The notes beneath the pieces are model-generated. The model saw only the letters and a list, made by a program, of their open reading frames with translations. It was not told where the DNA came from and searched no databases. A DNA stretch of 64,000 nucleotides, taken from assembly GCA_964016885.1 (NCBI GenBank), contig OZ024742.1:323826001-323890000 (forward strand), given 5' to 3'. Both the position numbers and the translations under genes were made by a program. This document shows positions 2,259 to 32,979 of this stretch, one piece after another. The DNA is from Eledone cirrhosa. Lineage: Eukaryota. Positions within the stretch are counted from its first letter, which is position 1. Each line of letters starts with the position of its first letter.

Positions 2259-2919
2259 GATTGATGGAGTCACCAAATACAGCCAGATACTTAGCAAGGT
2301 TATGCTTGCACGTGCAGTTGTTCACTGGTATCGAGAGCAGAGTTAGAACTTCTGTAGACCACAAATAAACATATTTTCAGTACACCAGTGACAAGTGTCT
2401 TAGCATCAGTTTCAAACCATTCTACAACATTTAGGCTGCCTTTTCCAAACACTTCACTGATATTTACAAGACTGACGGGCTATGAGTGTAAGCTAGGCTT
2501 GAATTCATAAATGAAATTGTTGAAAATTGTGGTTTCATTCATGGTTTGAATAAAGTGAATTTACAGAAAAACATTAATAACATTAATAATAATTATTATA
2601 GAAATGATTTCTTTTGAAGGTCAATTATTGTAGTGAAGGGATATAGTCAGTCGAATCAACAGCAGTATACTACTGGTACTTAGTATATTAGACCCTGAAA
2701 CAATTTGAACATGAAACCAAAAGAGGCAATATTCTAATGCATTTAGTACAGTGTTCAACTAGTTAACCATCCCTGCTTTCCAGGAGTTTTTTTGCTTGTA
2801 TAGAGCAACTGGGGTATTGAAGCTTCGAATGAAGGTGTTGGAAAGAGTGTTAGAGAAGAGAACAAGAGAAAAAAAATTAAAATTGATGAAATGCAGTTTT
2901 GAATTATACCAGAAAGAGG

Positions 2920-9697: not shown

Positions 9698-9790
9698 TTT
9701 TTCTTTTTCAGCTTTCTTAGCTTTTAATTCGCGCACAATTTCCCCTTGGTCTTTGACTGCCTGTTTAATTGCTGCTTTTTGATCGGCCAT
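9698..9790 (-). CDS. HARS: HARS exon 1 (cytosolic isoform), first helix of the N-terminal WHEP domain
   Basis: caccATG with in-frame upstream TAA; MADQKAAIKQAVKDQGEIVRELKAKKAEKEK|GTAAG. Matches the WHEP QG-x-x-VR-x-LK motif and the metazoan HisRS N-terminus (from memory, Drosophila ...QGDLVRQLKAAKESKEK; human exon 1 is about 30 codons with a phase-0 intron). The rest of the gene lies left of the window. Confidence 0.85.
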
Positions 9791-9850
9791 GGTGATGATT
9801 TGTTAGCAGCTGAAAGGTCACTTCCGTTAACGGCGCAGTTAATGGTAAAA

Positions 9851-9859
9851 TGATGCAAT
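9851..9859. promoter_or_regulatory. C/EBP-ATF composite (CARE/AARE) motif TGATGCAAT upstream of HARS exon 1; also at 17879-17887, 18526-18534, 28423-28431, 29070-29078
   Basis: Exact ATTGCATCA on the minus strand 61-72 nt upstream of each exon-1-type ATG while flanks diverge. An ETS-like CGGAAGTG also lies at 9819-9826. Confidence 0.55.
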
Positions 9860-12800
9860 GCTACGGTACTATAACAACTATGGACTTGGCTGGACCGGTA
9901 AAAACACCGTTTTACATGTATTAGGGTCAGTACCAAAAATGACTTTCTTTCTTTTAATACTGTAAAGGAATACTAGTAACTGTATGGAATCAAGTCTAGA
10001 ATATTTGTGACGATTGCGCATTAAAACAAGTGGCAGTGACATAACTAACGTGAAGTTACTTATGTCACTTTATTTACTTATGTCACTTTATTTACTTTAT
10101 TTACTTTAGACATGAAATGTTTTACTTTAGAAATGAAATGTTTTATCTATGAAACCTATAAATATCCTTTAAAATATTCAGAAATTAGAATCAGATAACA
10201 AAATGGAATTGGAAATTTGGTCTTTTTTTTCTTTCATTCAATGCCGTCTTAAGGATTTTATTGTTGACTTAGGATTGTTTATTGCTTCTTTATCTTGTTT
10301 AACCCCAGGTCAATCATCTGACCTACCTCCATCGATTTTTATATCAAAATAAAGCAAAAGAAATCATCTTCATGACTATCATTTTCAACACAAATCAAGG
10401 TATACTGAACTAGAACTAACGTTACCTTCAAAAACGAAAATGGGACAAACGTAAATCAGTGGAAATACGAAGGTGATTAAGGAGATCTGGCATGATATGT
10501 AAGGTATCACAGAATCAAAAGGCCTAAGAGTAAACTTAGCCAAAACAGGGAAGTGGCCCTGCTCAGTATGTAGAAAAGGAGTCGGCATAAACTCCATACG
10601 ATGTACACAACGTAAATAGAACTGTCAATTCTCCTCGTCCGACGGGGTCTCCCACCCACTTTGGGGTGGGTGAGAGATGTCTTCTCTTGTGAAAATGAGT
10701 ATAGCTTTCATTATGTAAAATCTCCCTATTTCGCCTCATTTCTCCCCGTTTTCGGACACCTATTTTCGTGGTTGAGTGGTTGGCATCTAAACCGGCAACC
10801 CCACCAAGCTTGCTTTGTGAGGAGGGTGATTTTTTGGACACCTCACCGGATGAAGGACAAAACCCATCAAAGGACAGAAGTGATGAGAGTCAACGGCTAT
10901 CCAGTTTGATCTATATATGTGTATATTTTTATATATACATTTATTTTATTAATTATATATTATGTCTGTGTGTAAAACTAAGAATAATATATATAATAGA
11001 TGGATGGATATATGTGTGTGTGTGGAATTAAAATATCAGGTTGGTGTCTGGCACATAATATAGTTCAGCTCATGAGATGGAAAACTCTGAAGAGAAAGCC
11101 TAAGTCTGCTGTTAATCAGTCTTGTGGTATATTTGCATCAACTGTTGCTATCAACAGTGCCAAAAAGTGTGAATGGTCCCACACAAATCATTACCACTAT
11201 AAACAAGTGACTGTGGTATGTCTAAGGGATTTACTTACTCCACTTTTTATCAAGATCATCCTGAAAAGCACCCCTTTTTATATATATGCATGGCAACAGG
11301 GACAAGTAGATGATCCATCTGGTAGTTCTTAGTTGGTACCCTGCACAGATGGTGGCTCAGTAAGTAATTGTCATTTAGGATCAATTCTATGGGCAATTGA
11401 GCTGCTCGTGTCCTCTGTTGGATAACAAAGCACTGCTTTCTCTTAATTGAGAGGGGGTGAGAAAAGGAGCCCTAAAAAATTGCACAACCATAAAGACTTG
11501 TCATCTTAATTTGCTTGAAACTTAAAGCAAAGACAAAAAATCCCATTGAAATTTGGTTCTTGGAATGACCAAACCCTTCAGGATAGTGAAGACTCATTAG
11601 AAAAGAAAACAGTTCTTGTGTCAAAGGTCCTAAATAAGTACAATGTAAACATAGCAGCATTATGTGAAGCTCGACTTCCTGTTTATGGACAACTTGAGGT
11701 GAAAGGGGAAGCTTATATGTACATTCTTCTCGTTATGGAATAAAGAAGATGCAATATGCTCTTTAGGTGTTGGATGCATCCAAGGTCAAAAGAATGGCAT
11801 TTGATTAACTTGATTTTAACAAAAACGTGATATTTGTTATACCCATTCCTTCCATAGCTCATATTGGTTATCTGATCATTCTCTGTTGCAGTGTAAGATA
11901 TTGTTTTAATATCATGTAAAGCATAGAAGACAATGCAAAATTTATAAAATGAATAAATGTTTGGTCACTTGATGCTGAAAGAAAAGCTAGGTTGTCTTGA
12001 TTGCTTGACAAGCAATTTCAATAAGTTGAAATTTCAGAAAATATTGAAGAATCGTGGAGAAAATTTCAAGGAAGTAACATATTTTGCTTCATTTGAAGCT
12101 CTTGGTTTGCCATTTTAAAAGCATCAAGATTGGTTCGATGAAAATAATACAGATACAAGGATAAGCTGAAGAATAATATCAAGCATATTGGAAGCATCAG
12201 AATTTGAGGAATGTGTTGTTGACCAAAATAGGTGGAGGAAAACCTGTTAAAATGACATCAGGAGCCATGTCAACACAAGGATTGAGCTCCTATATGATCT
12301 AAGGCAAGGTTAAAGGAATGCAGTTTCTGTTCAACATTTTGTGTGTGAAGGATGCAGTCTGGTTTGCAAAAACAAAGCAGGTCAGTGTCTCACAGAAGAT
12401 ACAAACACTAAAATGTAGAGTGAAAAGGAAGTAATAATTTATTTTGGTCCTCATGCATCAAACACTATTAGAGAGTCCATCATGTATATATAGGGTGAGC
12501 ATAAAGTTTTTCCCTTTTTGTTTCCCAGATGTCATTTTGTTACTGAAAATTACAACTACTTTCTGCATGTACTGGGAACATTTTTAGAACTTGAAATTTA
12601 TAAATTAAAACAATGAAAAAGTAAAATCTCAAATAGTATCCGAGATATGGTATTTTATAATCAGGGAAAAACTTTATGCTCACCCACGACTTTATGTTGA
12701 CCCTGTATATATACAACATATTTCTACACAGTTTTTATCTACCAAATTTCACTCACAGGACAGTCATCAATGCAAGGCTATATGTAGAAGACTTTTGCAC

Positions 12801-13443
12801 AAGGTATCATGCAGTGAGAGATAACCTGAAACCATATGGTTGCGAACTGATATCCTTAACCACATAGCTATGACTGCACCTATCTGGTTTAATGCCATTC
12901 TTATACCAAACCCTGCTGTTCCATGACACAATATTGAAATAAAAAAAAGAGCAGCATCTGCAGAATGCCAGATACATAGTTTATGTTCAAAATTCAAATT
13001 TTGCTATGAGCCATGCAACTTTGCCTTTCATCCTTCTGAAGTTACTCTAATGGATTGTATCCTTGGGCTAATGTTTCCGAAAGTGGTAAGGGACTGGGTT
13101 TAATATATTACAAGTATTACTATTTCTAGAGTGTTTATTTGCTTATGTGTTCTATTATTTATAATAATAATAATGAAATTATTGTGTACAGTACTCAGTA
13201 AATTGCAGAGATCAGCAAACTACTTCAATAATACAAGTCCAGACAGTTATGACTTTGTCCTCCGTTCTTATGGAGTTGATAAAATAGTTATGGGATCAAG
13301 TCCATGTAATAACCATACAATTCAAAACTGGCACTGTAACACCAGTGAAAAGAAATCAAGGAAAGTAACTTCCTGGTAAACTTTCTCAACTCAACTCAAA
13401 ACTATTCTTCTTTTGCTACTAGATGATCAGAAACATCTGATTA

Positions 13444-14340
13444 CACTGTGTAACATATTTTTTGTTCCCCGGTTCTAAGTGTCATATCCTGGTTTGTTAT
13501 ATCCCATTATTATAAAAAAAAACACTATTATTTAATCAGAAGTTTGGGTTTGTGGTCAGGAGTTTGATATTTCGAAATTTTCATATTTTTCAAGAAAAAA
13601 CACATTTTTTAAAAATTCATCAGTTCATATAATTAAATCAACAGAGTATATATTTATTTTATTACACAGGCTTATCAAAATCAAACAAGTAAAAACAAAT
13701 AACACTTATAAAGCAACTTATACACGTCAGAAATGACTGGATTTGTGGTTGTAGTCCAGGTCACATTCTCGCACGAGCCCCCAGATATTTTTTCATTGTA
13801 GTGGCCCTGTTACCTCCGCTCTATCTCTTTCACATCTTGGTAGAATCGTTTGCCTTGTTCTTCTGAGTAGGCACCCATATTGTCCTTGAATTTTTCAAGG
13901 TGAGCGTCCAGCATATGGAGTTTAAGCGACATCCTGCATCCCATGGTGCCAAAAGCCAGATCCTGCACCAGTTGCTGGTAGTTTTCAGCTCTGTAGTTGC
14001 CCAGAAAGCCCTTAACAACTGCCTTGAAACAGTTCCATGCTGTTCTCTCAATCCTATTGAGCTTATTGGAGAACTCGGTAGACTGAAACACCTTCTTTAT
14101 CTGAGGTCCAACAAAAATTCCACCTTTGATTTTGGCCTCAGATAACTTGGGGAAGAACTCAAGAAGGTACTTAAAAGCGGCTGATTCTTGGTTGAGAGCC
14201 TTCACAAACTGCTTCATCAACCCCAACTTAATATGCAGTGGCGGCATGATCACAATCCTGTGATCAACCAGTGGCTCCCACATGACGTTCCGGGTCTCAA
14301 CTACAAATTCTGTTCGCTCCCAGTTCTTTCACTCCATATT
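13444..14340 (-). mobile_element. DNA transposon 3' fragment, probably CMC/Chapaev3-like transposase
   Basis: ORF 13810-14283 with PPLHIKLGLMKQFVK, KLSEAKIKGGIFVGPQI, GCRMSLKLHML, SEEQGKRFYQD; CACTGTGTAACA terminus at 13444. Superfamily assignment from memory. Confidence 0.7.
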
Positions 14341-14668
14341 GAAATATATTCAATCAAATAAAACATAGCTGTATAAGTGCTGGACTAATTGAAAATAGTA
14401 TTATTCATTGATATGTAACCCCCTATTAATTCCAAGAATAAAATAGAAGTTTCAATGTTCATTCCATTCATAATTAATGCCATAGCTTTTTTTTTAACTT
14501 GAGAAATGAATGGTTGGTTGGCTGTTTGTTTGGTTAAAAACAATAATTTTTATGTATGTGTGTATGTAACATGTGGTGCAGTAAATAAATATATAAATGA
14601 ATGGTAATGAAATGGCTAAGCCTTTCCATTACCATATGAAATGTACTGCTTATGTGTTTCAATTAATT

Positions 14669-16697
14669 TATAGCGAAGATACTGGGTTGTATGAATGTAA
14701 CAAGGCAATTTAGCGTAGATACTGGCGGTGTATGAATGTAACAAGGAGACATGGTTTGTGTGTATAGTGTTTAATTAACAATCATGGATATATATAGAAC
14801 AGTATAGTTGACATGTCAAAGTAATAGATGATAGAATGAAGCAAAGTTAGTAGTTACCGTTTTGATTGCCAGGCAAACGCGAGACGCCTGGCGAAGGCCA
14901 GGCGCCGGAAGGGCAAAAGAGAGGGAGAGAGCCGAAGGCTATTCGTTTTATAGGGCTCTGCCGGAAGTTACAGAAAGGGTTCTACTTCCCGTCTAGATGT
15001 TAATCTATTGGGGTTGTGAGTCACAACAAGGGAGACAACCGCTACATAACCTCCCGCCAGAATTTTAGAATATAAAAATCGCATGAAATATGTAGCAAGT
15101 TGGCGAGAATGTTGTAACAGGCATGAAAATTAAGACAAAAGAATGTTTGCAAAAATCAATGATAGATATCAAGGTAGCCAACCGCTCTTGGCCAGAGAAC
15201 GACTGGACATCTATCTATCCATCACCCAAAGATACAATGTAATAAAGTAAGAGAAGAGCTCAAAGTTCAAATGTACAAAATATAGTTCACAGGTGAGCAA
15301 TCACATGACAGCAGGAAAGAAAGTGTGTTCCAGAGAATGAATGCAGGTGGTTTCTGTTCTGTGGTATATCGTGAAATTTCCAACCTCCGAATGGATTTTC
15401 TCACAGGAAGAGTGCTGCAAAAATAAATTCTCTGGCTTGTTCTGCTGGTTTTGGTTGTTGGTGAAGCTGTGTTGCTGTGGATGTTGTCTCGCGGAGTGAG
15501 CGTATTCGGTGTTTAAATTCACAGTAAAAAAAAAATTTTTCAGAAAAAATGAGTTGCGCAAAGTGCTAGAAATAACAGCCGAAGTTGATGGTCGATGTTG
15601 AGAATGCGTTGACCTGGAAGGGTCAAGAGGCCAGCGACCAAAGAAATAAGCATTCTGAATAAATGCGCAGTTTTCAACGGCAAATTTACGTGGTAAATTT
15701 TTAAACCGGCAAATAGGAGAATATAGCTTAAGGCTGAAGAATCCTTGGCGAGAAACGTTATCTCTGGCGTGCGGCTATCTCTGTGAGTCGAGAATATCTC
15801 CGTGAGTTGAGAATTTGTGCTGCCTACACGTGCCAATACACGGATAAGTTAGGTTGAAAAAATAATATTTCTAACGCGCGAGAAAATGATAGTGCAAGTG
15901 TGAAAGTGACAATGATGAAAAGGCTTCACTTAGCATAATTATTGGTGTGAACTTTGAAAAAAAAAACTTGAACGATGAAGAAAACGATGAAAAAAAAAAA
16001 AAAGGCAAGGGTTCATCGAAAATAAATTTTCTTGTTGAAATGTTTTTTAAAAAATATCAAATATCTTGTTTTTTTTTTTTTTTTTTTTTGTTTTGAAAGT
16101 GTTCGTTGTAAGAAACGAGAAACATATATATATCGTGAAATGCGACAGTTAGTTGATGCGTGAGAGAAAAAGTCTGTCTGAACGCGAATTTCACATGTGC
16201 GTGTGTGCGTTTCTTTGAGTATTTTCATAGTTTGTCGATAAATTTGCTGTGTATTCGTAATGTTACTCACACAACACCAGAATCTGTTATTTTTTTCTTT
16301 TTTTGGGGTGACCACTTATAGCGATGAACGGCTGCGTGTTCGTATCACGTCAGGGTTACCAATATAGCGAAGATACTGGGTTGTATGAATGTAACACGGA
16401 GACATGGTTTGTGTATAATATTTAATTAACAATCATGGATATAGATAGAACAGTATAGTTGACATGTCAAAGTAATAGATGATAGAATGAAGCAAAGTTA
16501 GTAGTTACCGTTTTGATTGCCAGGCAAACGCGAGACGCCTGGCGAAGGCCAGGCGCCGGAAGGGCAAAAGAGAGGGAGAGAGCCGAAGGCTATTCGTTTT
16601 ATAGGGCTCTGCCGGAAGTTACAGAAAGGGTTCTACTTCCCGTCTAGATGTTAATCTATTGGGGTTGTGAGTCACAACAAGGGAGACAACCGCTACA
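14669..16697 (-). mobile_element. Non-autonomous LTR retroelement; 5' LTR 16363-16697, 3' LTR 14669-15046, tRNA-Trp PBS
   Basis: About 335-bp near-identical direct repeats TGTAGCG...CGCTATA, AATT TSD, PBS TGGTAACCCTGACGTGAT (16361-16344), PPT-like GGCGGGAGG before the 3' LTR; 1.3-kb interior with no recognisable pol. Confidence 0.85.
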
Positions 16698-16821
16698 AAT
16701 TTTTTAAATGAAAAAATTAGAGGAATTAAATAAACTAACATTCTCATTAATAAGCTGATGTTTGAAACATTATTTAACACATGTTTCTTAAATAAAATTA
16801 TGATGGAAGGGTTTAATATAA

Positions 16822-17476
16822 GTATAAACGAACTAAGGAAAAAATTAGAGATAAGAGGGATCAGATGTTGTTTACTCGAGAGAAGGCTACGTTGGTATGG
16901 ACACGTGATGCGCATGAAAGTCGATAGCTGTATAACAAAGTGCAGGGCAATAAAGATAGACGGTAGTCACGGAATAGGCAGACCTAGAAAAACCTGGGAC
17001 GAGCTGATAAACTCCGACATCACACACTTACACCTCTCCAAGACAATGTCACTGGACCGAGACCTTTGGCGGTACTCAGTAACAGAGAAGACCCGCCTTA
17101 CCTAAATATATAGTAAAACCTACTCCAGCCAGTAGGCATCTCTAACAAAATACACCCCGTCCCACCACCCCCACCCCATCCACACCACCCCGTTCTATGT
17201 AAAGTTATGTTGGTGCCGCGCCATCCAGGCCGAAACAAATGAGATCGTGTAGGTGTCACGACAAAAAACACACAGTCCACGCTGTAAATGTGGCCGTGTA
17301 GGCAACACGGTAAAAACCTCCCAGACCCACACTGTAAATGTGGTTGGTGTTAGGAAGGGCATCCAACTGTAGAAAACCTGCCAGACAGTCCTATGCGAGC
17401 AAGACAATCACTCTTGCCTCAAGTGGGACTACCCCCGTCCAAACCCATGCAAGCGTGGAACACGGACGTTAAACGT

Positions 17477-17507
<31 letters not shown>
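16822..17507 (+). mobile_element. 5'-truncated RTE LINE (copy A); related copy B at 27211-28051 and 37756-38590
   Basis: RRLRWYGHVMRM...GRPRKTW C-terminus, family 3' UTR, (GAT)n tail. Confidence 0.9.
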
Positions 17508-17510
<3 letters not shown>

Positions 17511-17719
17511 CGTTTTAAAGTGGACAGTTTTATATCCTAAAACCAGGACAGATTCAAGCAGTTTATTATCAAATGTGTTGCATATATCAAGATTTGCAAG
17601 AGTCAGAATTTATAATTGAACAAGCTGGAATTAAAAGTGATATTATACTAGTAGAAATATTAGTAATAATAGTAGAAATCATTATTATATTGATATATAT
17701 ATAATTTTTCAAACCTTAC

Positions 17720-17815
17720 TTTTTCTTTTGAAGCTTCCTCTATTTTTAATTTTTCCACAATTTGCATTTGATTTTGGATTGCCTGTTCAATTTCTGCATC
17801 CACTTGTTCTGCCAT
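17720..17815 (-). CDS. HARS: Divergent duplicate of HARS exon 1 (acidic WHEP helix-1 variant)
   Basis: caccATG, 96 nt open, MAEQVDAEIEQAIQNQMQIVEKLKIEEASKEK|GTAAGGTTTGA. Same donor context and phase 0 as 9790-9698. Confidence 0.65.
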
Positions 17816-17933
17816 GGTGTTTATTTGATATTAACTCTTGAGAAATATTTGAGAACAGAGCAGGATTGTGCTTTTAAATGATGCAATATTGACAGCGGCA
17901 AAGGTCTGTGTGGAAGTGCAGAAGTTTTAGAGC

Positions 17934-17967
17934 AACTAATGAAAAGGCTTTAATATCTAGTCATATA
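17934..17967 (-). promoter_or_regulatory. TATA-like/Inr-like core promoter candidate for the acidic exon (paralogue at 18568-18603)
   Basis: TATATGA at -30 to TTAGTT; in the paralogue TATATAA at -32 to TCAGTT. Confidence 0.35.
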
Positions 17968-18428
17968 TGCACTTATGTCAAGTTTTACTCCTCCCAGAAC
18001 AATAGAGAAAAGGGGGAGGAGGCTTACAAACCAAAGCCAGCTAGCTATACCACTCCCATTAAATTGTTTTTTTTATATACAGTTGTTTAAAGTAATATTC
18101 CCAATATATTGTGGTTTTTCTGACAGTATGAGTGACCAACTAGGCTAAATAATCATTCTCATTCACAATACATTTTTATATCAATAATTGTTTCTACTTT
18201 AGGCACAAGGACAGCAATTACCCAGTACATTACTGGTACTTTATTTTATCGACCCCGTAAGGATGAAAGGCAAAGTTAACCTCGGCGGGATTTGAACTCA
18301 GACTGTAAAGGGACGTAACTATGCTAGAAAGCATGGCGTCCAACCCTCTACCGATACTGCCAATTCACCGCCCATTTTTATATCAATAATGCAATGCTGG
18401 AGTATTGTAGAGTAACTGTTAACATCAG

Positions 18429-18464
18429 TCACTCTTCGTCCGTGGCATTCACTTTCTCTGACAT
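18429..18464 (-). pseudogene. Truncated third exon-1 paralogue (MSEKVNATDEE*); duplicate at 28973-29008
   Basis: aataaacaccATG context and about 150 nt upstream are homologous to 17816-17970. The peptide aligns with MAEQVDAEIEQ, then TGA; no phase-0 donor. Confidence 0.55.
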
Positions 18465-19325
18465 GGTGTTTATTTCATTGTAAGTTGTGGGTGATTTCTA
18501 AGCAACAGACCATTGTCGTGTTGAATGATGCAATATTTGCTGTGAAGAAGGGCAACATTTCTAGGGCAACTGATAAAATGCCTTTTTAGTATTTAGTTAT
18601 ATATCCAGTTACATTGAGTTGAAATTCCACTGTTGTTAATTGCCTTCTACCTTCAATTATTCTAAGATCTAGAACACAAGTTCAAACACTTCATAAGTGA
18701 TGACCTTATACAAATGTTAGTTGTCAATATTGGGGTAGACAAAAAAAGGTAGTTTATAGTAAAGCACTGGATTAAATTGATTGATTACAGTGTTTGGCCA
18801 TTCTATATTACATGCCAGGTATTACTTTCCATTTATTTTGTTCTAGTGTTGATAATATTATAAGTACCAGTAATTATATGGTATTGAGTCAAAATAAAAT
18901 CCCATAATTCCAAAATTAACTTTATGACTACTTGTTAAATTCAAGCAGGTAGATTTATAAGAAAATTATCTTTGTAACCTTTGAAAAATGACCAAATCTA
19001 TAGAAATTCATATTTCCTTGTATATACAAAATGTAGAAATTTTGCATCTAGTATACAGAAACCAATATTTCATAGGTAAATATACAAAGTATGCTAGTAA
19101 TATGTATGTATGTATGCATGGACCCGTAACTCCTGGTGAAATTGTAGGGGTACCATAGTAGTGACATATGTCATTTCTTTGGCATTTTAAACATAGCAGA
19201 GCCCATCCCTTTCCATGTCTGAATACAGCAAATTTATTCTGGAGAGAGAGGGGGTGGGGTGGGGGGAGGGGGTTAAGAAAGATATAGAGGAAGAATTTTC
19301 CCCCAGCACTGGACTGGTACTTTAT

Positions 19326-21047
19326 AATAATAATAATAATAATAATAATGAAATATTGTGTACAGTGCTCAGATGCACTACAACTCATCAAAAAGTGTAT
19401 GTATAGTACATAGGGTAATGTACAAACATCAGGAAAATGAACAGTGCATGAGTCATGATACACATGTGTGCATGTGTATGGAAGGGGTACATCAGGTGTA
19501 GTTTTGGCGTATTTCGGGAAGCATGAGTGTCTTAAAGGATGCAGTGTCTCGGCAGCTAACAACTGACGCAGGCAGTTTGTTCCATGCTTCAGCAACTCTG
19601 AGCGTGAAAAAATGTCTACGAAAGTCATGGGAGCTGTGTTGTTTTCTGATTTTGTAGGCATGTCCATGTGTGTTAGACACACGGAGATCAAAAAGGTGCT
19701 CAGGGTTGCAATTGGCGAGATGTCCATTGCCAGACGTCGGAGCTTCAATGAATCCATGCCCAGGGAAGCAAGGCGTTCAGAGTATGGTAGGTGTCTGATG
19801 GAGGGTATGCGCTTGGTTGCACGTCTCTGAACAGTTTCCAGGAGATCAATGTTCTGAGCAAGATAGGGTTTCCAGACTGATGATGCGAATTCCAAGTGTG
19901 GTCGTACCATAGCTGTATACAGTTTTAAATAGATGGCTGGAGAGCGGCTAACAAAGGTCTTGCTGAGTGATGCCAAGACACCCTCGGCCTTCTTGACAAT
20001 CTTAGAGACATGCTTTGTCCAACGCAAATCGCTGCTGACAGTAATGCCCAGGTCACGTTCACAAGAGGACTTCTTGATATCAGTGTTGTGGAGGGAGTAT
20101 GTGGATGCTGGATTTTTCCTCCCAAAATGCATGGTGGTACACTTGTCCACAGCCAGCTTCAGTTGCCAGTCTGTGATCCATTGCTGCATTGTGTCCAGGT
20201 CTGATTGTAGGAAAGAGTTGTAGATTTCAGGATCAGTCCTTTTGATTTCAAGGTACAGCTTGATGTCATCTGCATATTTCAGTACCGTGGCATTCTGTAA
20301 GTTGGCATCTATGTCATTAATATATGCCACAAACAAAAGGGGACCAAGAACTGATTCCTGTGGTACACCAGATGACATCTCATATGGTGAAGAATGCTGT
20401 CCTAGAACCCTGACTACCTCTTTTTGGCTGAGAATGAAGGATTTCAACCAGTCGAAAAGATCATCCCTCACACCCATTGCAGAGAGTTTTGCCATAAGTC
20501 TTTTGTGTGGCACAGAATTAAAAGCCTTAGCAAAGTCAAGGTAAACAACATCCACCCATGAGCCGCTGTCAGTGATCCGGGTGATGTCTTCAAGGAACTC
20601 GATAAGCTGATCACAGCAGCTGGAGTTAGGGATAAATCCAAACTGTGAGGGCCGGATGAGGCTGTGAGAGCTCCAGAAGTTCCAAAGTGTTTCTCTGACA
20701 CAGGATTCCATCAGTTTGGCCATACAGCTAGTAAGACTGACTGGACGATAGTTGACAGGTGACGTGCGGTTGCCCTTTTTGAACAGTGGAATGACACTGG
20801 CAGTTTTCCACTGCTCCGGAGTAGCACCATTGTTGAGACAGTATTGAAAGAAGAAAGAAAGCTGGCGCAAAAGGAAATACCCGCTACGTTTGAGAAGCAG
20901 GTATGTAACACCATCAAGACCAGGGGAGGCATAGTTACGCTTATTCTTAAGGTGACGTCGCAACATTGCAGGTGAAAATTCCATAGTTGTTATGGAATTT
21001 GATGTTAGAGATGGTGGAGATGGTACATTCTGGTTTTCAACTGCAAA
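19326..21047 (-). mobile_element. 5'-truncated CR1/L2-group LINE RT; duplicate at 29870-31591
   Basis: PGLDG, PLFKKG, YRPVSLTS, QFGF, YLDFAKAF, GVPQESVLGPLLF, YADD, RPHLEF; (TAT)n tail; frame disruption near the C-terminus. Confidence 0.92.
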
Positions 21048-22419
21048 GTACTCTATCCAACATACTAACAGCTCTGCCAATTCACTGCCTCACTATTTAT
21101 ATACTTCTACATTATATTTGTAATTAAAATACAACAATCTAGTTTCTATTATTTTATAAGACAACAAGGGCAGTGGACTGGCAGTATCGGTAGAGGGTTG
21201 GACGCCATGCTTTGCAGCATAGAGTTACGGCCCTTTACGGTCTGAATTCAAATCCCACTGAGGTTCACTTTGCCTTTCATCCTTATGGGGTTGATGAAAT
21301 AAAGCACCAGTAATACACTGGGATAATTGCTGGCCTTGTGCCAAAAGTAGAAAATTATTTTAAAAGACAAAACACTACATTATTTAGGATCATCATAATC
21401 ATCATTTCACTTTTATTTTTCATGCTTGTATGGGTTAGATGGGCTGTCAACTACTGATGCCAGATTGGTCACGTGACTATATCCTTACGTTCTGTCTTTG
21501 GTTTGATTTCTATGGTTGGATGCCATTCCTAACACCAGCCACTTTACAGTGTGTACTGGGAGCATTTTATCATGACACCAGCACAACTATTTTACAGAGT
21601 GGGCTGAGTGCATTTTATCATAGCACCAGCACTATCTCATTACAACAATAGAGTACTCAATGTAGTATTGGTCAGGCAAAAATAAGAAATGGGTTCTGTT
21701 ATGCAGTTTATTCTTATCAAAGATTTTAGTACATGAAAGACGACAGCTGTATAAAAAAGTGCAGGGCGATTAGACGGAAGCTATGGAGTAGGAAACCCAG
21801 AAAAACCTGGGACGATTTGATAAATTCTGACCTTACACACTTAACCTCTCCAAGACAATGTCACTGGACCGAGATCTTTGGCGCTACACAGTAATACAGA
21901 AGACCCGTCTTGCCTAAGTACAGTCAGTAGGCACCTCTTAACCAAAAATGACTTAAGTGGGTATACCTCTTCCCTGAATTTGAGGCCTAATGGACATATC
22001 CAAAAAGAAACTTTTAACAATCTACACTATACACTTTGATGAAATAGATTCAGAAATTATGGTTATATAAATCAACTCTAGTCATGAATATGTTGCTATC
22101 CCTATAAACATCAGAAAAAGGATTACATTTGACATCCATATCTTTTTATAATAGAATCACACCTTGGGAGGGAGGGAGGGGTAAATATATGTTATACGAA
22201 TTTGTTAACTCTATTGTGACTGTATTTCTAATTCTTCTTCTGAAAAAAAAAAAAAATTATGCTTGTAAGGGCAGCAAAATTTAGCTCGTTCAGAGTGCCA
22301 GCAACCCTAGGTTTTGTTCTGTCCTTGAATTTCATCCTTCTAAAATCAATATCATGAGTATCATCTAGTACTGGGACCGATTCCTAACACTGTGCCAATG
22401 TTAGGAATTGAATTTGCAT

Positions 22420-25400
22420 TTAACCCTTTCATTACTGTAGCCGGAGGCATTCGGACTTACCTTGCATCTCTCTGGTCCACGTGGGAGTACTTTCCGCTTG
22501 CGTCTGTCTTCGCACGTCCGTAACCTTCGAGGGTGTACGGCTAAGAGGCCCCTGTTGACCGCCTGGTCCCTCGAGTCGCCCCCGTCCTCCTGCTTCTAGG
22601 TCAGGTATCCCCCAACTTCCGGCAATTCTCCCTCCCATGGCCGCTCTACACCCCCTTCCATCTTGCAGCAGCCCCACATGCCCCCCCCCCCTGATCCCAA
22701 GGATCAACCCCCACCACCACCACACTGCTCCATCCACCTAGGTTGGCGGCGGCTCCGTTGCGATCTCCGCACTGTCAGGGCGGCACTTTCCTCTTCCTCG
22801 GAGTCCGTCAGCACAACGACTCTACGGATGCCCAAGACATGACGTGGCATTCTGTCCACAGACATGTTGTTTTGGGAATTTATGGCGGTTACCATTCCCT
22901 TTCCCCATTGAGATGTGCAATGTGTGTTCGGGGGCTTGACCCATACCTCCTCGCCTACTTGTATGAATGCGCTCTCTCTCTCCACCGGCTGCTGTGGTAC
23001 CAAGCGCGGGTGTCGCCATTCATATCTGTATATTGCCCTGTCCCACCCACGGAGACATGTTGTACCAGAACACTGCCTCCTTTGGGGAAATGTGCCCCCT
23101 TTCCGCCATGGCCTTGATCGTGCGATGGTGTCTCTCCACGATCCCATTTCCACTCGGCCTGTATGCCGCTCTGAAGAAACGGTTCACCTTCCACTTGTCA
23201 AGCATTTCCCTCAGTGCCTCCGAGCGAAACACCGTTGTCCATCAGCAGTTCATCCACAGGGCCCCGCTCCAAGAATATGTCTCTCAGCGTCCGCACGATT
23301 TCCTCAGCAGTCCCTGTCTTCCTTTCCCTCCATATCGCCATCCACCCCTGGCCCACAATCGACTATCGAAAGATACATTCCTTGTCGGTAGTGTGTCATG
23401 TCCTCTGCTAATCGCTTCCAGCTGTGCTCCACCGGGATGCTTCCTGTCTCGTGCACATCCGGGGCAGGGTTGATAGACTGGCATCTGTCGCAACCTCCGA
23501 CCACTCTCTGGACACTGTCTGCTAACATCAGAGTCGATTCTTCTGGCTAGGAACAGGGTCCTATCCACCCCATGTGGTGCATGGCGTGCAGTCCCCTCAA
23601 CTCCGAATCACTCAGCCGACACACTGCCGCTATCCCCTTCTCTGCGTCCCCTGGCGTTTCTAGCCAGGCTTTCTTCACCCTGGTTAATACGGCTACCCTG
23701 TTTTTCTCTGAGGGCACAAAAACCACACTCAACTCCAGGCCGAACTCAGTGGACAGCTGTCCCAGAGTTTCCAGGCAGCGCTTTATCAACATTTCTGCTG
23801 CAACTCTTGTTCACACCCTCCTCTCACTGGTAAGCACTGATCTCACCCATCCGAGTACAGTGGCTGAGTCAGTGCGAATTTCTATGGTGCGCAGCCCCCA
23901 TCTCAGGGCGAGATTCACCCCTCTCAGCACAGCATCCAGTTCAGTCACGTTGATGTGGTTGTAGTCCTCCTTCTACCTGAGCCAGGCTGCGTCCTCAACC
24001 TCAACGCCCCCTATCTCCAGAGTGACCCCTAGTGCTATGCTGCTGGCATCACACCATACGGTCCCAATTTGGGGACGTACCAGCATCCTCTCACTGGGTC
24101 ATCCGCTTTTACTCTCTCCACGATTTCCTACATCATGGCCACTGTCCTCTCTCCAACCCTGTCAGCCCAGCTCACTCCATCTGCTCGTCTCTTGACATAG
24201 CTGCATGCCGTCCGGAGCCACCCTGCAATCGGATAGTGGCCCACCAATTTACCACACATTGAGAAGAGTTCCCGTCTATTCATATCGGGGCCCAGTTCCG
24301 GGACTTCATTACCCCTCCGAAACACGAGTGTGCCCGTCTTATCCCTTTGCAACCTCAGTCCTAGCGCGGTTCCTCCTTCCAGCGCCTCCGGCGGTTTCGT
24401 GGTCAGCCCGAACCTTCCCAAGTGGCCTGAGACTTCTGCTGCTGACACCACCGTCCCATCCACCAAGATGTTGTCGATGTAGGAGTTGGTGGGTCCCTTC
24501 ACCTTGTCCGCTTTCCCCAGAATGACCTTGAGGGCCGTCGCCATGATTTTTGGCGCAGAGTTCAACCCGAAGCCAAGCCTGGTCAGGCAGTATGTCTGGC
24601 CCTTATACCTGACCAGCTGATATTTCCACAGTTTCTCATGCACGTGTAACTGCAGATATGCCAACAGTCAACAATCGGGGAGGCCCCCGTCATTCGTCTC
24701 CACTCTCGCAAAGTTTCTCCGCAAACATCTGTGACCTCACCACCTGTGTGGCATGACATGTGTTCGCTCAGCTGACGAAAGTCCAGCACCGGCCTAACCT
24801 TGTCCTTCATGGGCTGCACACTCCACACTTCACCTCCTCCTTCTAAGGAAGCAGTATACCCTCCTCGATCCATCTCTGTACCTCTCCCTCAAACTCGCTT
24901 CTGGCAATTCCTTTCAGGGTGTGCTGATAGCAGCCCACTCTGTTTTTCAGCGTTGGTGGCTCTCCCTTCCAGTACCACTCAACTACCCACCGCTGCCCAT
25001 CGAACACCGCCCTGAAATCCTTGTCCTGTATGGTATTTTCTTCATGGATCGCCCTGTTCTTCGTGGATTCTCCCAGCTCGCTCACAGCACATGATGTCCT
25101 CTCGCTACCAAACGTCACCCCGACTTCAGTCACTGTAACACCTCCAAGGCAGCCAATCGTGTCTATGCCCATTACTACATCGTTCCATCCACCGCCTGGT
25201 CAATCACAATCGCCCAAAACCTAATTTTTCTTCTCTGTACCACCATCGACATCTTGCTGGTACCTCAGCATCTAACCTCCCTGTCGTTGACTGCCCTTAT
25301 ACTGCTCATCCTGCTCCACTTTTTAACCACCTCCGTGGTCACTAGTGTTGTCGTGCAACCCGTGTCCACGAGTGCTCGCGATGGCTTCCCTTCCACCAAA

Positions 25401-26718
25401 ACTTCCACTACGGGCAACGACTGCAAAGGCACCTCTACTCGCCTACAGGGGTGGCTACTGGTGCAGTAGCCCCCCTTAGACAATTTCGCTGGTCGCAATT
25501 ATTTGTGATATGGCCTGGTCGCAATTATTAGCGATGTGGTCTGGTCACTTGCAACGATAGCAGACTATAGCTGGATTCGGCTCTCTGCAGTCCCTTGCCA
25601 TGTGCGGGCCCTGGCACCTGAAGCACCGACCTCCGAACGCACGCGGACGACTATTCACAGCAGCTGGTCTCTTTTCGTCATACGATGGTCGCTGTCAACT
25701 GCCATGGACTTCCGTTGCTGCCAGCGCTGCAACACTCCACCTCGTGTCCTGTGTTATTACGCGGGCCTGTGCAATGAGCTCGCTCATGCTCATTTCCCTG
25801 TTGCCGGGCAGCTGTTGGAGCTTCATGGAGATTTCGTCGGGGAACCCATTCGTAAAAGCCAACCGCATGGCGCATTCGCGTTCTACCGCAAATCTGGCCA
25901 ACGTAGCCAACCGCCGTAACTCTGTCGCGAACATGTCCACGTGCTCTCCCTGCCATCTCGCTCTGCCTAACTTCCTTAAGTTGCTGTCCTATCCTCTCCA
26001 CGTTCAGTTGGTCGCTCTTGTCCATCTCAAGGTACAGTGCTAGGGCATCCCCATCGAGATATAGAGCGATCAAACCAGCAACGTTGTCAATGCTTTACAG
26101 CGAGGCGACCAATGTGACCTTTCTCAACCAGGCCACAACATCTCCTTCGCCGTTAAAAGCCTTGATCGTCTCACTATTCAATCTCAGTTTCAGATCGGAA
26201 AAAAATCAACAATGATACCCCACGAAAGAGAGCTAAACTAAAGGGCGGCTGTGCCGGGAGTAAAAATGCCAAAAGATGGAAAATTTAATTAAATGCCGAA
26301 ATAGCTTGTAGCTGGAGGCATTCAGACTTACCTTGCATCTCTCTGGCCCACGTGGGAGTACTTTCCGCTTGCGTCTGTCTTTGCACGTCCGTCACCTTCG
26401 AGGACATATGGCTAAGAGACCCCTGTTGACCGCCTGGTCCCTTGAGTTGCCCCTGTCCTCCTGCTTCCGGTCAGGTATCCCCCAACTTCCGGCAATCCCC
26501 CTCCCACAGCAGCCCCACAATTACCATTTCGAAAGTAATCAAGAATTTGGAAGGATTTAGAATATAAGTAACTTTCTCATTATTAAGCTGGTGTTTCAAA
26601 CATGACTTAACTTGGGTTCTTACATAGAATTATGATAGAAGGTTTTTAAATAAATATAAACAGCTTCGTATTGTAGAACCATGGACAGTTTCAGGCAGTT
26701 TGGTATCAAAAGGGTTAA
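22420..26718. mobile_element. piggyBac-like MITE (TTAA-CCCT...AGGG-TTAA) split by the gypsy insertion
   Basis: TTAACCCTTTCATTAC left of the gypsy element and TGGTATCAAAAGGGTTAA at 26701-26718. Related interior sequence at 14620-14668+16698-16820. Confidence 0.6.
22436..26519 (-). mobile_element. Decayed full-length Ty3/gypsy LTR retrotransposon (3' LTR 22436-22678, 5' LTR 26307-26519)
   Basis: TG...CA LTRs, ATTAC TSD, G-run PPT; fragmented gag (Cys/His knuckles), protease ALVDTGC, RT RPVLDFR/LGFGLNSAP/YIDN, RNase H, integrase RPSGNGIVERHHRTIK in gypsy order; many frameshifts. Confidence 0.92.
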
Positions 26719-28019
26719 ATATTTAGTGTTTAGCCAGGAACGACTTTCTATTTCATAAAACTGGTGTCAGTAAATATATGGTATTGAATTAATATGTTTA
26801 TATAATAACTCTCATGTTCCAAAAGTGAGCTTGTTACTACTGAAAAGAAACCAAATAAGGCAATATCCTGGTGGACTATTCTCTTTACTTGTTACAAATT
26901 TCTTGGAAAAGCACACATCTATACAAATTAAAAACCGTTGTGACTATTAAACAGAAACTAATATTTTGTGAGTCATTTTCCTATATTATATATTCAAAAT
27001 ACATAAGTAAGACACTGGCTGTATTTCTATTCTAAATACAATGGTCTAGTTTCTATTATTTATTGAAGGTATATTATGATAATAACAAGGAATAGTTTTC
27101 TGACATGTCACATACTCTTATCAAAAACTACAGTGCATACTATCCTATATTCTAATCTTGGTTTTATTTTAATAGTGACTTACTCACACACACACACAGA
27201 TATACACACACAATGAAGGGCAGGCTGTATGATGCCTGCATACGAACAGCAATGTTACATGGCAGTGAGACCTGGGCATTGTGTGCAGAGGATATACGCA
27301 GACTGGAGAGAAACGAAGCTTGCATGCTCCGCTGGATGTGTAATAGTAACATACGTGAACGACATAGCATAAATGTACTAAGGGAGAAATTAGAAATAAG
27401 AGGGATCAGATGTTGTTTACTCGAGAGAAGACTACGTTGGTATGGTCACGTGATGCACATGAAAGATGACAGCCGTATAAAAAAGTGCAGGGCAATAAAA
27501 ATAGACAGTAGCCACGGAGTAGGCAGACCCAGAAAAACCTGGGACGACTCGATAAATTCCAACCTCACACACTTACACCTCTCCAAGGCAATGTCACTGG
27601 ACCGAGAGCTTTGGCGCTACACAGTAATAGAGAAGACCCGTCTTACCTAAGTACAAAGTAAAACCTACTACAGTCAGTAGGCACCTCTGACAAAATACAC
27701 CCCGTCCCACTACCCCCACCCCATCCACACTACCCCTTCAATGTAAAGTTATGTTGGTGTTACAACGTCCAGCCTGAAACAAATGAGGTCGTGTAGGTGT
27801 CACAACAAAAAAAACACACAGTCCACGCTGTAATGTGGCCGTGTAGGCAACACGGTAAAAACCTCCCAGTTCCACACTGTAAATCTGGTTGGTGTTAGGA
27901 AGGGCATCCAGCCGTAGAAAACCCGCCAGACAGTCCTATGCGAGCAAGACAACCACTCTTGCCTCAAGTGGGAAACCCCCGTCCAAACCCATGCAAGCGT
28001 GGAATATGGACGTTAAACA

Positions 28020-28054
<35 letters not shown>

Positions 28055-28263
28055 CGTTTTAAAGTGGACAGTTTTATATCCTAAAACCAGGACAGATTCA
28101 AGCAGTTTATTATCAAATGTGTTGCATATATCAAGATTTGCAAGAGTCAGAATTTATAATTGAACAAGCTGGAATTAAAAGTGATATTATACTAGTAGAA
28201 ATATTAGTAATAATAGTAGAAATCATTATTATATTGATATATATATAATTTTTCAAACCTTAC

Positions 28264-28359
28264 TTTTTCTTTTGAAGCTTCCTCTATTTTTAATTTTTCC
28301 ACAATTTGCATTTGATTTTGGATTGCCTGTTCAATTTCTGCATCCACTTGTTCTGCCAT
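28264..28359 (-). CDS. HARS: Second identical copy of the acidic HARS exon-1 variant (inside the tandem duplication)
   Basis: Identical to 17720-17815 at offset +10544. Confidence 0.55.
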
Positions 28360-31300
28360 GGTGTTTATTTGATATTAACTCTTGAGAAATATTTGAGAAC
28401 AGAGCAGGATTGTGCTTTTAAATGATGCAATATTGACAGCGGCAAAGGTCTGTGTGGAAGTGCAGAAGTTTTAGAGCAACTAATGAAAAGGCTTTAATAT
28501 CTAGTCATATATGCACTTATGTCAAGTTTTACTCCTCCCAGAACAATAGAGAAAAGGGGGAGGAGGCTTACAAACCAAAGCCAGCTAGCTATACCACTCC
28601 CATTAAATTGTTTTTTTTATATACAGTTGTTTAAAGTAATATTCCCAATATATTGTGGTTTTTCTGACAGTATGAGTGACCAACTAGGCTAAATAATCAT
28701 TCTCATTCACAATACATTTTTATATCAATAATTGTTTCTACTTTAGGCACAAGGACAGCAATTACCCAGTACATTACTGGTACTTTATTTTATCGACCCC
28801 GTAAGGATGAAAGGCAAAGTTAACCTCGGCGGGATTTGAACTCAGACTGTAAAGGGACGTAACTATGCTAGAAAGCATGGCGTCCAACCCTCTACCGATA
28901 CTGCCAATTCACCGCCCATTTTTATATCAATAATGCAATGCTGGAGTATTGTAGAGTAACTGTTAACATCAGTCACTCTTCGTCCGTGGCATTCACTTTC
29001 TCTGACATGGTGTTTATTTCATTGTAAGTTGTGGGTGATTTCTAAGCAACAGACCATTGTCGTGTTGAATGATGCAATATTTGCTGTGAAGAAGGGCAAC
29101 ATTTCTAGGGCAACTGATAAAATGCCTTTTTAGTATTTAGTTATATATCCAGTTACATTGAGTTGAAATTCCACTGTTGTTAATTGCCTTCTACCTTCAA
29201 TTATTCTAAGATCTAGAACACAAGTTCAAACACTTCATAAGTGATGACCTTATACAAATGTTAGTTGTCAATATTGGGGTAGACAAAAAAAGGTAGTTTA
29301 TAGTAAAGCACTGGATTAAATTGATTGATTACAGTGTTTGGCCATTCTATATTACATGCCAGGTATTACTTTCCATTTATTTTGTTCTAGTGTTGATAAT
29401 ATTATAAGTACCAGTAATTATATGGTATTGAGTCAAAATAAAATCCCATAATTCCAAAATTAACTTTATGACTACTTGTTAAATTCAAGCAGGTAGATTT
29501 ATAAGAAAATTATCTTTGTAACCTTTGAAAAATGACCAAATCTATAGAAATTCATATTTCCTTGTATATACAAAATGTAGAAATTTTGCATCTAGTATAC
29601 AGAAACCAATATTTCATAGGTAAATATACAAAGTATGCTAGTAATATGTATGTATGTATGCATGGACCCGTAACTCCTGGTGAAATTGTAGGGGTACCAT
29701 AGTAGTGACATATGTCATTTCTTTGGCATTTTAAACATAGCAGAGCCCATCCCTTTCCATGTCTGAATACAGCAAATTTATTCTGGAGAGAGAGGGGGTG
29801 GGGTGGGGGGAGGGGGTTAAGAAAGATATAGAGGAAGAATTTTCCCCCAGCACTGGACTGGTACTTTATAATAATAATAATAATAATAATAATGAAATAT
29901 TGTGTACAGTGCTCAGATGCACTACAACTCATCAAAAAGTGTATGTATAGTACATAGGGTAATGTACAAACATCAGGAAAATGAACAGTGCATGAGTCAT
30001 GATACACATGTGTGCATGTGTATGGAAGGGGTACATCAGGTGTAGTTTTGGCGTATTTCGGGAAGCATGAGTGTCTTAAAGGATGCAGTGTCTCGGCAGC
30101 TAACAACTGACGCAGGCAGTTTGTTCCATGCTTCAGCAACTCTGAGCGTGAAAAAATGTCTACGAAAGTCATGGGAGCTGTGTTGTTTTCTGATTTTGTA
30201 GGCATGTCCATGTGTGTTAGACACACGGAGATCAAAAAGGTGCTCAGGGTTGCAATTGGCGAGATGTCCATTGCCAGACGTCGGAGCTTCAATGAATCCA
30301 TGCCCAGGGAAGCAAGGCGTTCAGAGTATGGTAGGTGTCTGATGGAGGGTATGCGCTTGGTTGCACGTCTCTGAACAGTTTCCAGGAGATCAATGTTCTG
30401 AGCAAGATAGGGTTTCCAGACTGATGATGCGAATTCCAAGTGTGGTCGTACCATAGCTGTATACAGTTTTAAATAGATGGCTGGAGAGCGGCTAACAAAG
30501 GTCTTGCTGAGTGATGCCAAGACACCCTCGGCCTTCTTGACAATCTTAGAGACATGCTTTGTCCAACGCAAATCGCTGCTGACAGTAATGCCCAGGTCAC
30601 GTTCACAAGAGGACTTCTTGATATCAGTGTTGTGGAGGGAGTATGTGGATGCTGGATTTTTCCTCCCAAAATGCATGGTGGTACACTTGTCCACAGCCAG
30701 CTTCAGTTGCCAGTCTGTGATCCATTGCTGCATTGTGTCCAGGTCTGATTGTAGGAAAGAGTTGTAGATTTCAGGATCAGTCCTTTTGATTTCAAGGTAC
30801 AGCTTGATGTCATCTGCATATTTCAGTACCGTGGCATTCTGTAAGTTGGCATCTATGTCATTAATATATGCCACAAACAAAAGGGGACCAAGAACTGATT
30901 CCTGTGGTACACCAGATGACATCTCATATGGTGAAGAATGCTGTCCTAGAACCCTGACTACCTCTTTTTGGCTGAGAATGAAGGATTTCAACCAGTCGAA
31001 AAGATCATCCCTCACACCCATTGCAGAGAGTTTTGCCATAAGTCTTTTGTGTGGCACAGAATTAAAAGCCTTAGCAAAGTCAAGGTAAACAACATCCACC
31101 CATGAGCCGCTGTCAGTGATCCGGGTGATGTCTTCAAGGAACTCGATAAGCTGATCACAGCAGCTGGAGTTAGGGATAAATCCAAACTGTGAGGGCCGGA
31201 TGAGGCTGTGAGAGCTCCAGAAGTTCCAAAGTGTTTCTCTGACACAGGATTCCATCAGTTTGGCCATACAGCTAGTAAGACTGACTGGACGATAGTTGAC

Positions 31301-32979
31301 AGGTGACGTGCGGTTGCCCTTTTTGAACAGTGGAATGACACTGGCAGTTTTCCACTGCTCCGGAGTAGCACCATTGTTGAGACAGTATTGAAAGAAGAAA
31401 GAAAGCTGGCGCAAAAGGAAATACCCGCTACGTTTGAGAAGCAGGTATGTAACACCATCAAGACCAGGGGAGGCATAGTTACGCTTATTCTTAAGGTGAC
31501 GTCGCAACATTGCAGGTGAAAATTCCATAGTTGTTATGGAATTTGATGTTAGAGATGGTGGAGATGGTACATTCTGGTTTTCAACTGCAAAGTACTCTAT
31601 CCAACATACTAACAGCTCTGCCAATTCACTGCCTCACTATTTATATACTTCTACATTATATTTGTAATTAAAATACAACAATCTAGTTTCTATTATTTTA
31701 TAAGACAACAAGGGCAGTGGACTGGCAGTATCGGTAGAGGGTTGGACGCCATGCTTTGCAGCATAGAGTTACGGCCCTTTACGGTCTGAATTCAAATCCC
31801 ACTGAGGTTCACTTTGCCTTTCATCCTTATGGGGTTGATGAAATAAAGCACCAGTAATACACTGGGATAATTGCTGGCCTTGTGCCAAAAGTAGAAAATT
31901 ATTTTAAAAGACAAAACACTACATTATTTAGGATCATCATAATCATCATTTCACTTTTATTTTTCATGCTTGTATGGGTTAGATGGGCTGTCAACTACTG
32001 ATGCCAGATTGGTCACGTGACTATATCCTTACGTTCTGTCTTTGGTTTGATTTCTATGGTTGGATGCCATTCCTAACACCAGCCACTTTACAGTGTGTAC
32101 TGGGAGCATTTTATCATGACACCAGCACAACTATTTTACAGAGTGGGCTGAGTGCATTTTATCATAGCACCAGCACTATCTCATTACAACAATAGAGTAC
32201 TCAATGTAGTATTGGTCAGGCAAAAATAAGAAATGGGTTCTGTTATGCAGTTTATTCTTATCAAAGATTTTAGTACATGAAAGACGACAGCTGTATAAAA
32301 AAGTGCAGGGCGATTAGACGGAAGCTATGGAGTAGGAAACCCAGAAAAACCTGGGACGATTTGATAAATTCTGACCTTACACACTTAACCTCTCCAAGAC
32401 AATGTCACTGGACCGAGATCTTTGGCGCTACACAGTAATACAGAAGACCCGTCTTGCCTAAGTACAGTCAGTAGGCACCTCTTAACCAAAAATGACTTAA
32501 GTGGGTATACCTCTTCCCTGAATTTGAGGCCTAATGGACATATCCAAAAAGAAACTTTTAACAATCTACACTATACACTTTGATGAAATAGATTCAGAAA
32601 TTATGGTTATATAAATCAACTCTAGTCATGAATATGTTGCTATCCCTATAAACATCAGAAAAAGGATTACATTTGACATCCATATCTTTTTATAATAGAA
32701 TCACACCTTGGGAGGGAGGGAGGGGTAAATATATGTTATACGAATTTGTTAACTCTATTGTGACTGTATTTCTAATTCTTCTTCTGAAAAAAAAAAAAAA
32801 TTATGCTTGTAAGGGCAGCAAAATTTAGCTCGTTCAGAGTGCCAGCAACCCTAGGTTTTGTTCTGTCCTTGAATTTCATCCTTCTAAAATCAATATCATG
32901 AGTATCATCTAGTACTGGGACCGATTCCTAACACTGTGCCAATGTTAGGAATTGAATTTGCATTTAACCCTTTCATTAC

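Follow-up and report, generated by a model that had tools for sequence, protein, structure and literature searches.

We begin with the question that this locus raises: can a single gene for histidyl-tRNA synthetase (HisRS) carry two alternative versions, one basic and one acidic, of the first helix of its WHEP domain? The window, by which we mean the whole stretch of 64,000 nucleotides analysed (G000:C3:323826001-323890000, from the 3.0-Gb genome of the octopod Eledone cirrhosa), holds the 5' end of HARS on its minus strand. Upstream of the canonical coding first exon lies an acidic paralogue of that exon. We lean, without great confidence, toward reading it as an old duplicate of the first exon and its upstream region that serves as a functional alternative promoter and first exon, and that would give a cytosolic HisRS with an acidic WHEP helix.

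One HARS gene and its duplicated first exon

The assignment to HARS made in the preliminary description is borne out by exons 2-14, which TIGR00442 and tblastn place 3.9-27.5 kb to the left of the window (G000:C3:323.798-323.822 Mb). Exon 2, in phase 0 and starting at C3:323822096, encodes the second WHEP helix, and the catalytic and anticodon-binding exons of a class IIa histidyl-tRNA synthetase follow on the same strand as the first exons. All six genome-wide matches of TIGR00442 fall at this locus, as do all 12 matches of the HARS model of a relative, Argonauta hians (GAB1608506.1, referred to as P0010); PF13393, searched exon by exon across the genome, gave no match. HARS at this locus is the sole HARS gene detected in the genome, and any added first exon can therefore use only these downstream exons. 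Within the window no exon-2-like sequence was matched, in agreement with the earlier observation that none lies between the first-exon copies. On this search and those using TIGR00442 and P0010 we reject both a further HARS gene and a duplication of exon 2. The HARS core is 89% identical to that of Octopus vulgaris over 473 residues and falls in the octopod clade of a tree (100/99), where its pairing with Argonauta (93/92) is not firm.

The features discussed below are collected in Table 1. A genome-wide DNA search finds five related first-exon places only, all within the window. The canonical exon matches the WHEP-TRS profile PF00458 as a half domain and scores 69.2 bits when joined to exon 2. 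The acidic exon is 75% identical to it in DNA, and the alignment confirms what had been described: CACC-ATG and phase 0 are common to both, the 11-nt donor GTAAGGTTTGA is identical, and QG/VR has become QM/VE. The acidic copy has a good start context, an open frame and a donor in phase with exon 2, as an alternative first exon should. Beyond the donor the two introns align globally at shuffle level (97 of 200 shuffles reach the score), while a local alignment scores 50 against a shuffle maximum of 44.

What has changed is the surface of the helix. The counts of lysine and arginine versus aspartate and glutamate, 9 versus 6 in the canonical exon and 4 versus 8 in the acidic one, are as first reported. 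The acidic exon keeps the hydrophobic core and LK, and it loses QG/VR and five basic residues; with QM..VE and its net charge of -4 it departs both from the QG..VR motif and from a basic first helix. On a WHEP profile built from 32 non-cephalopod HARS segments, the acidic exon joined to exon 2 scores 46.6 bits, where 200 shuffles of the exon average 28.3 +/- 1.8 and none reaches it. Four mis-anchored segments (P0036, P0097, P0105, P0133) were kept in this profile and left out of the charge range; the first helices of the other 28 span net charges of -2 to +4. The term "charge-reversed", used for this helix before, is thus apt within this gene and too strong across these homologues. The loss of QG/VR is the sharper oddity than the charge because of that span.

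The acidic peptide shares 19 of 32 residues with the canonical peptide of O. vulgaris and 16 of 32 with its own canonical neighbour, so the exon duplication is older than several of the changes in the canonical copy. The extra codon of the acidic exon, previously taken as an insertion, instead reflects the loss of one codon from the canonical exon of this species, for first exons of 32 codons are also found in O. vulgaris, Sepia and Pomacea. No homologue was matched when the 43-residue canonical frame served as query. Among 50% representatives the sole match of the acidic exon is a repetitive 1209-residue protein, its score summed over eight stretches, which we reject as chance. In the ESM Atlas the best matches are WHEP clusters at 0.79-0.84, which we treat as leads only.

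Table 1. Features of the HARS 5' region, in positions of the window
Feature	Positions	Strand	Remarks
Candidate mitochondrial-targeting cassette exon	2151..2351	-	acceptor 2351, ATG 2258, 36 codons, CAG|GTATGT donor, phase 0
Canonical coding first exon	9698..9790	-	31 codons, net +3, first WHEP helix; PF00458 E 2.4e-6; 78% to O. vulgaris N-terminus
CARE core ATTGCATCA	9851..9859	-	61 nt before canonical ATG
Left copy of dispersed repeat bounding the tandem duplication	16821..17502	.	about 90% to the other two copies
Tandem unit 1	17477..28020	.	acidic exon, third copy, reverse-transcriptase frame 19008-21089, long terminal repeat (LTR)-type element 22436-26506
Acidic first-exon paralogue	17720..17815	-	32 codons, net -4, QM/VE replaces QG/VR; ATG, frame, phase 0, donor intact
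CARE core	17879..17887	-	64 nt before acidic ATG; within 12-nt exact match to canonical upstream region
Dispersed repeat resembling a short interspersed element (SINE)	18174..18390	-	between truncated third copy and acidic exon; label inferred from size and dispersion
Truncated third copy	18429..18464	-	ATG, 11 codons, stop; about 190 nt of upstream region 70% to acidic copy
CARE core	18526..18534	-	62 nt before third-copy ATG
Tandem unit 2	28021..38591	.	2 differences from unit 1; ends in third bounding-repeat copy 37757-38591
Second acidic first-exon copy	28264..28359	-	identical to 17720..17815 (sequence comparison)
CARE core, second acidic copy	28423..28431	-	motif match
Second truncated third copy	28973..29008	-	identical version (sequence comparison)
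CARE core, second truncated copy	29070..29078	-	motif match

An upstream element repeated with each first exon

If the duplicate carries a promoter as well as an exon, the next question is "what recurs upstream of each ATG?" The core of a CARE (C/EBP-ATF response element), ATTGCATCA, occurs five times in the 64 kb against an expectation of 1.16 (none of 100 shuffles reaches five), and all five matches stand 61-64 nt upstream of the five first-exon ATGs, or at three independent loci once the tandem copy is collapsed. The other 300 kb examined hold three further matches. The position is specific to the exact form of the element; the looser consensus TGATGxAAx is common (24 matches). Over 190 nt the upstream flanks of the canonical and acidic copies agree at 62%, a score reached by none of 200 shuffles, and those of the acidic and third copies at 70%. 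The longest exact match between the canonical and acidic upstream regions is a 12-mer that includes the element (5 of 1000 shuffles reach 12). The element lies near the gene start and is kept between copies, as would be expected of a CARE promoter. The upstream region as a dispersed repeat is rejected, only its two tandem copies being found.

On the opposite strand the core reads TGATGCAAT, the sequence that the relevant part of a study of mammalian cells (PMC5175342) reports for the human SARS element; the study also describes the induction by ATF4 of 16 of 20 cytosolic synthetase genes via such elements; a site for mouse Hars was not found in the supplement of that paper that was searched. 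No paper on CARE control of synthetase genes in cephalopods was found in the open-access literature. As a separate observation, two ATTGCATCA matches lie close to where GARS has its first WHEP exon in this genome (G000:C2:304,942,891 and 304,946,798), hinting that ATF4-type control of synthetases is perhaps general in this octopod.

Function or decay

We turn our attention to whether the acidic exon has been kept or has merely lingered. Neutral simulations, restricted to runs giving 8-12 amino-acid changes, show how often a copy still has its ATG, an open frame, GTAAG, five core residues and the element together: 0.3-2.4% of runs do, and 0.04-0.8% once indels are assumed at one per ten substitutions. 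Neutral runs reach a net charge of -3 or lower in 2-5% of cases, and in 0.2-0.5% they place an acidic residue where VR has its R. These figures speak against a decaying pseudo-exon, in which the extra elements would be chance survivors or enhancers serving the canonical promoter, and the acidity would be mutational drift.

A parallel acidic helix is also found at the head of the Argonauta model P0010, with 5 basic and 10 acidic residues, leading into the same exon 2. Exon 2 could be recognised in 41 proteins, of which we counted the 26 of WHEP type and left out 15 that are mitochondrial-type, truncated or mis-started. QG is present in 25 of the 26 and the R of VR in 24, and P0010 alone has QH..VE. 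At the 20 positions that are invariant in three canonical cephalopod exons, both acidic peptides are changed at eight, the window peptide alone at none, the Argonauta peptide alone at five and neither at seven (Fisher p 0.010 for the shared changes), the R-to-E change being common to both. With exon 2 the two score almost alike on the WHEP profile, 46.6 bits for the window and 46.5 for Argonauta against 69-76 for canonical forms; on the Pfam WHEP model the Argonauta analogue reaches 30.4, under the cut-off of 32.5. AlphaFold2 applied to P0010 with a 30-row alignment predicts helices at residues 3-26 and 31-47 (predicted local distance difference test, pLDDT, 84-87). A search with residues 1-52 of P0010 returned three of 1283 candidates, cluster representatives only, and among these no further acidic N-terminus. 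In its own right, isoform X1 of Pomacea canaliculata (P0131) carries a third, non-WHEP N-terminus on the same exon 2, so that mollusc HARS may innovate repeatedly at its first-exon position.

Several points weigh against a functional acidic exon. Between the canonical and acidic exons the ratio of nonsynonymous to synonymous substitution rates (dN/dS) is 1.4 (bootstrap 0.5-7.3), with no net purifying signal; the bootstrap range takes in the value of about 0.5-1 expected of a pseudo-exon, and this ratio by itself is uninformative. The simulated indel rate is an assumption, and the simulation figures make the case look too strong, since it is by being intact that an exon draws attention. The acidic exon alone has no match in Pfam or the Protein Data Bank (PDB), and its hydrophobic moment is not above that of shuffles, 14% of which reach it. 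The third copy keeps the CARE core though its frame is dead, so the element alone is no proof that the acidic exon is translated. As for Argonauta, its acidic peptide shares 10 of 32 residues with the acidic peptide of the window, the same as with the canonical one, and the acidic peptides do not group in an exon tree in which all relevant forks are open. The shared retention of the core would be equally expected under independent selection and therefore weighs against taking that retention as orthology. The alignment behind the fold prediction of P0010 consists mostly of canonical WHEPs. P0010 itself was produced by a pipeline that, in the part of its source paper describing it, mixes ab initio, RNA-seq and homology evidence (PMC12682272); as a pipeline gene model it is no proof of a transcript. 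Finally, the acidic N-terminus is absent from all six members of the Octopus cluster and all four of the Sepia cluster; the models of O. sinensis and O. bimaculoides are N-terminally truncated.

A dN/dS near 1, the already decayed sister (third) copy, a region rich in transposon insertions and the Octopus and Sepia members without an acidic isoform are all what a pseudo-exon would show. Against these stand the rarity with which ATG, frame, core, donor and element persist together under neutrality, the rarity of such charges and of the R-to-acid change, and the parallel helix in Argonauta. We consider the pseudo-exon unlikely, though it deserves the most weight among the alternatives. Going further in the opposite direction, it is possible, and we put it forward tentatively, that octopods inherited a third HARS promoter under ATF4-type control, swapping in the acidic helix, allowing mixed dimers and serving particular tissues or amino-acid stress, with the exons of the window and Argonauta as fast-evolving orthologues.

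A second alternative grants the promoter and denies the helix. It depends on a candidate cassette exon (Table 1) that was picked among 31 listed phase-0 ATG-to-donor frames between exon 2 and the window end. Its peptide has three arginines and no aspartate or glutamate, and this composition, from which targeting is inferred, makes it a likely mitochondrial-targeting exon. The N-terminus is in phase with exon 2, but its hydrophobic moment is not above shuffles, and comparison with the Sepia presequence gave no significant match. Models of Sepia and Pomacea have mitochondrial-type N-termini joined to the same exon 2, and passages on zebrafish hars (PMC5608375) describe the same cassette layout, with its own ATG and the first-exon frame stopped. 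The proposal that HARS has three N-termini (mitochondrial, basic and acidic) remains the best reading, except that the mitochondrial form more likely arises from this downstream cassette, outside the interval first described, than by promoter choice or from position 29008. The sequences that open with the ATGs at 18464 and 29008, once read as a mitochondrial N-terminus, are the truncated third copy, with one basic and four acidic residues; its stop after 11 codons and acidic composition rule out a mitochondrial exon.

Any phase-0 first exon joined to the cassette reads AAG TTC TAA, a stop at the third codon, as in the zebrafish gene where PMC5608375 treats it. The upstream promoter might thus be real but regulatory, its transcripts mainly including the cassette, so that the acidic frame would be an upstream open reading frame stopping after two codons and the helix would seldom appear in HisRS. 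Such a role needs an ATG, a donor and a promoter element but no basic face, and a similar role would suit the truncated third copy, which also has the element. It leaves the retained hydrophobic core unexplained, however, and the Argonauta model joins its acidic helix straight to exon 2; we judge it improbable.

The third copy offers one more observation: at 18453-18464 and 28997-29008 (minus strand) AAA|GTGAAT, four codons after the ATG, is a possible weak phase-0 donor. Its use, which is speculative, would give a HisRS without the entire first WHEP helix. Homology of the third copy was sought beyond the SINE-like repeat and does not resume.

The two acidic copies belong to a tandem duplication with a period of 10,544-10,545 bp. 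They are 100% identical and only two differences between the units lie outside the terminal repeat; the remaining ones are confined to the opening 660 bp, within a dispersed repeat that occurs three times. Of the three bounding repeats the left is distinct and the middle and right are identical, which is the pattern left by unequal crossover. Contig depth was compared in three runs from a single sample, which may be the one used for the assembly. Relative to the four adjacent single-copy contigs of each run, unique contigs of the unit stand at 1.9, 3.1 and 2.5 times the depth; relative to eight contigs per run at the GARS locus they stand at 1.9 times or more, with this control locus uneven between runs (2.9-10.0). 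The duplication is probably real and very recent. The acidic copies being identical within it, they count as one evolutionary event: the "array" described before does hold the acidic exon twice, as one 10.5-kb tandem duplication and not as independent exons. More improbable still is that the second copy is an assembly artefact, a 10.5-kb segment written twice (a matter of copy number and not of the acidic exon's existence), for although two differences in about 10.5 kb, a junction inside a dispersed repeat that no contig spans, runs possibly the assembly's own and uneven control depth would suit it, the raised depth of the unit and the bounding-repeat pattern speak against it.

The duplication carries a 693-codon reverse-transcriptase frame (19008-21089 and 29552-31633, minus strand) and an LTR-type element (22436-26506 and 32980-37051) with a DUF7047 match and terminal repeats 92% alike, both duplicated with the units. 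Elsewhere in the window, 45541-46380 (plus strand) is an intronless 279-codon frame with a class I S-adenosylmethionine (SAM)-dependent methyltransferase domain (PF08241 E 4.6e-15), divergent from HARS and possibly a retrogene or a single-exon neighbour, and two retroelement fragments, each with a reverse transcriptase and then a PHD finger, lie at 40709-42684 and 49756-51408 (both plus). Outside the window, at G000:C8:25,468,230-25,482,397, a terminal WHEP exon, likely of MARS by its C-terminal position, occurs three times in recent local duplications that are 97-99% identical, one copy having its C-terminus lengthened by a shift of frame within a stretch of lysines; an array of a 46-bp satellite, at least 10 kb long (G000:C8:25,489,800-25,500,000), adjoins them.

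A working model and known systems

We return to the acidic exon as a functional alternative first exon. On that model, the upstream copy would be transcribed under ATF4-type control, and splicing across 21.6 or 32.1 kb would join its exon in frame to the shared exon 2. The product would be a cytosolic HisRS with a WHEP hairpin predicted to be folded, its basic face lost and its catalytic exons shared. The RNA binding of WHEP domains is carried by basic residues, and the altered domain might bind RNA or acidic partners more weakly while charging of tRNA-His would stay largely unchanged. A later crossover between copies of the dispersed repeat would have doubled the module, the second copy adding dosage at most, and the mitochondrial form would come from the downstream cassette with its own ATG.

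The pertinent passages of PMC9956352 and PMC4357726 present the WHEP domain as a bundle of two helices that is believed to bind proteins and tRNA. Disruption of the WHEP of mouse GlyRS, in the reported portion of 10.1101/2025.05.14.654074, leaves tRNA charging intact and changes release and neuropilin binding, so normal charging with altered non-catalytic contacts is likely for an acidic HisRS. By these partial accounts the purpose of the HisRS WHEP is unsettled, and the GlyRS WHEP is largely dispensable for charging and needed for non-catalytic roles. An isoform pair that differs in one helix of the hairpin and has an identical catalytic body would, if real, make the functions of the basic face separable from fold and catalysis. 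If the promoter is octopod-wide, a natural charge-switched HisRS would charge tRNA-His and drop or change the RNA and receptor interactions of its WHEP. The repeated element suggests that cephalopods, too, have ATF4-type control of synthetase genes. Should the exon prove silent, what remains is a duplication in ordinary decay. In line with what the preliminary description supposed, no account of a WHEP first exon that is acidic or duplicated was found in the open-access literature, nor of a duplicated, charge-shifted one bearing a C/EBP-ATF element, subscription journals being largely outside that search.

How does the locus compare with known systems? With mammalian CARE/ATF4 synthetase control, as far as PMC5175342 sets it out, it shares the exact TGATGCAAT near the gene start; here the putative element is repeated with each first-exon copy. 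With GAB1608506.1 of Argonauta it has in common the acidic first helix, the loss of QG, VE and the exon-2 junction, while the Argonauta exon has 33 codons and shares the 10 of 32 residues given above. With the WHEP-TRS domains (PF00458) of HisRS, GlyRS, TrpRS, MetRS and EPRS it shares a predicted two-helix hairpin split by a phase-0 intron, with core and LK; the acidic exon differs in lacking QG and VR, in its acidic first helix and in a profile score that falls from 69 to 47 bits. That one dual-targeted HARS gene can have alternative 5' exons is already known. Zebrafish hars, in the passages of PMC5608375 concerned, and the Sepia and Pomacea models likewise have one gene, a WHEP first exon for the cytosolic form, an ATG-bearing cassette and shared exons from exon 2 on. 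In contrast to these, the octopod gene has a second WHEP-type first exon, made by duplication and with a net charge of -4, whereas the third N-terminus of Pomacea is of non-WHEP type.

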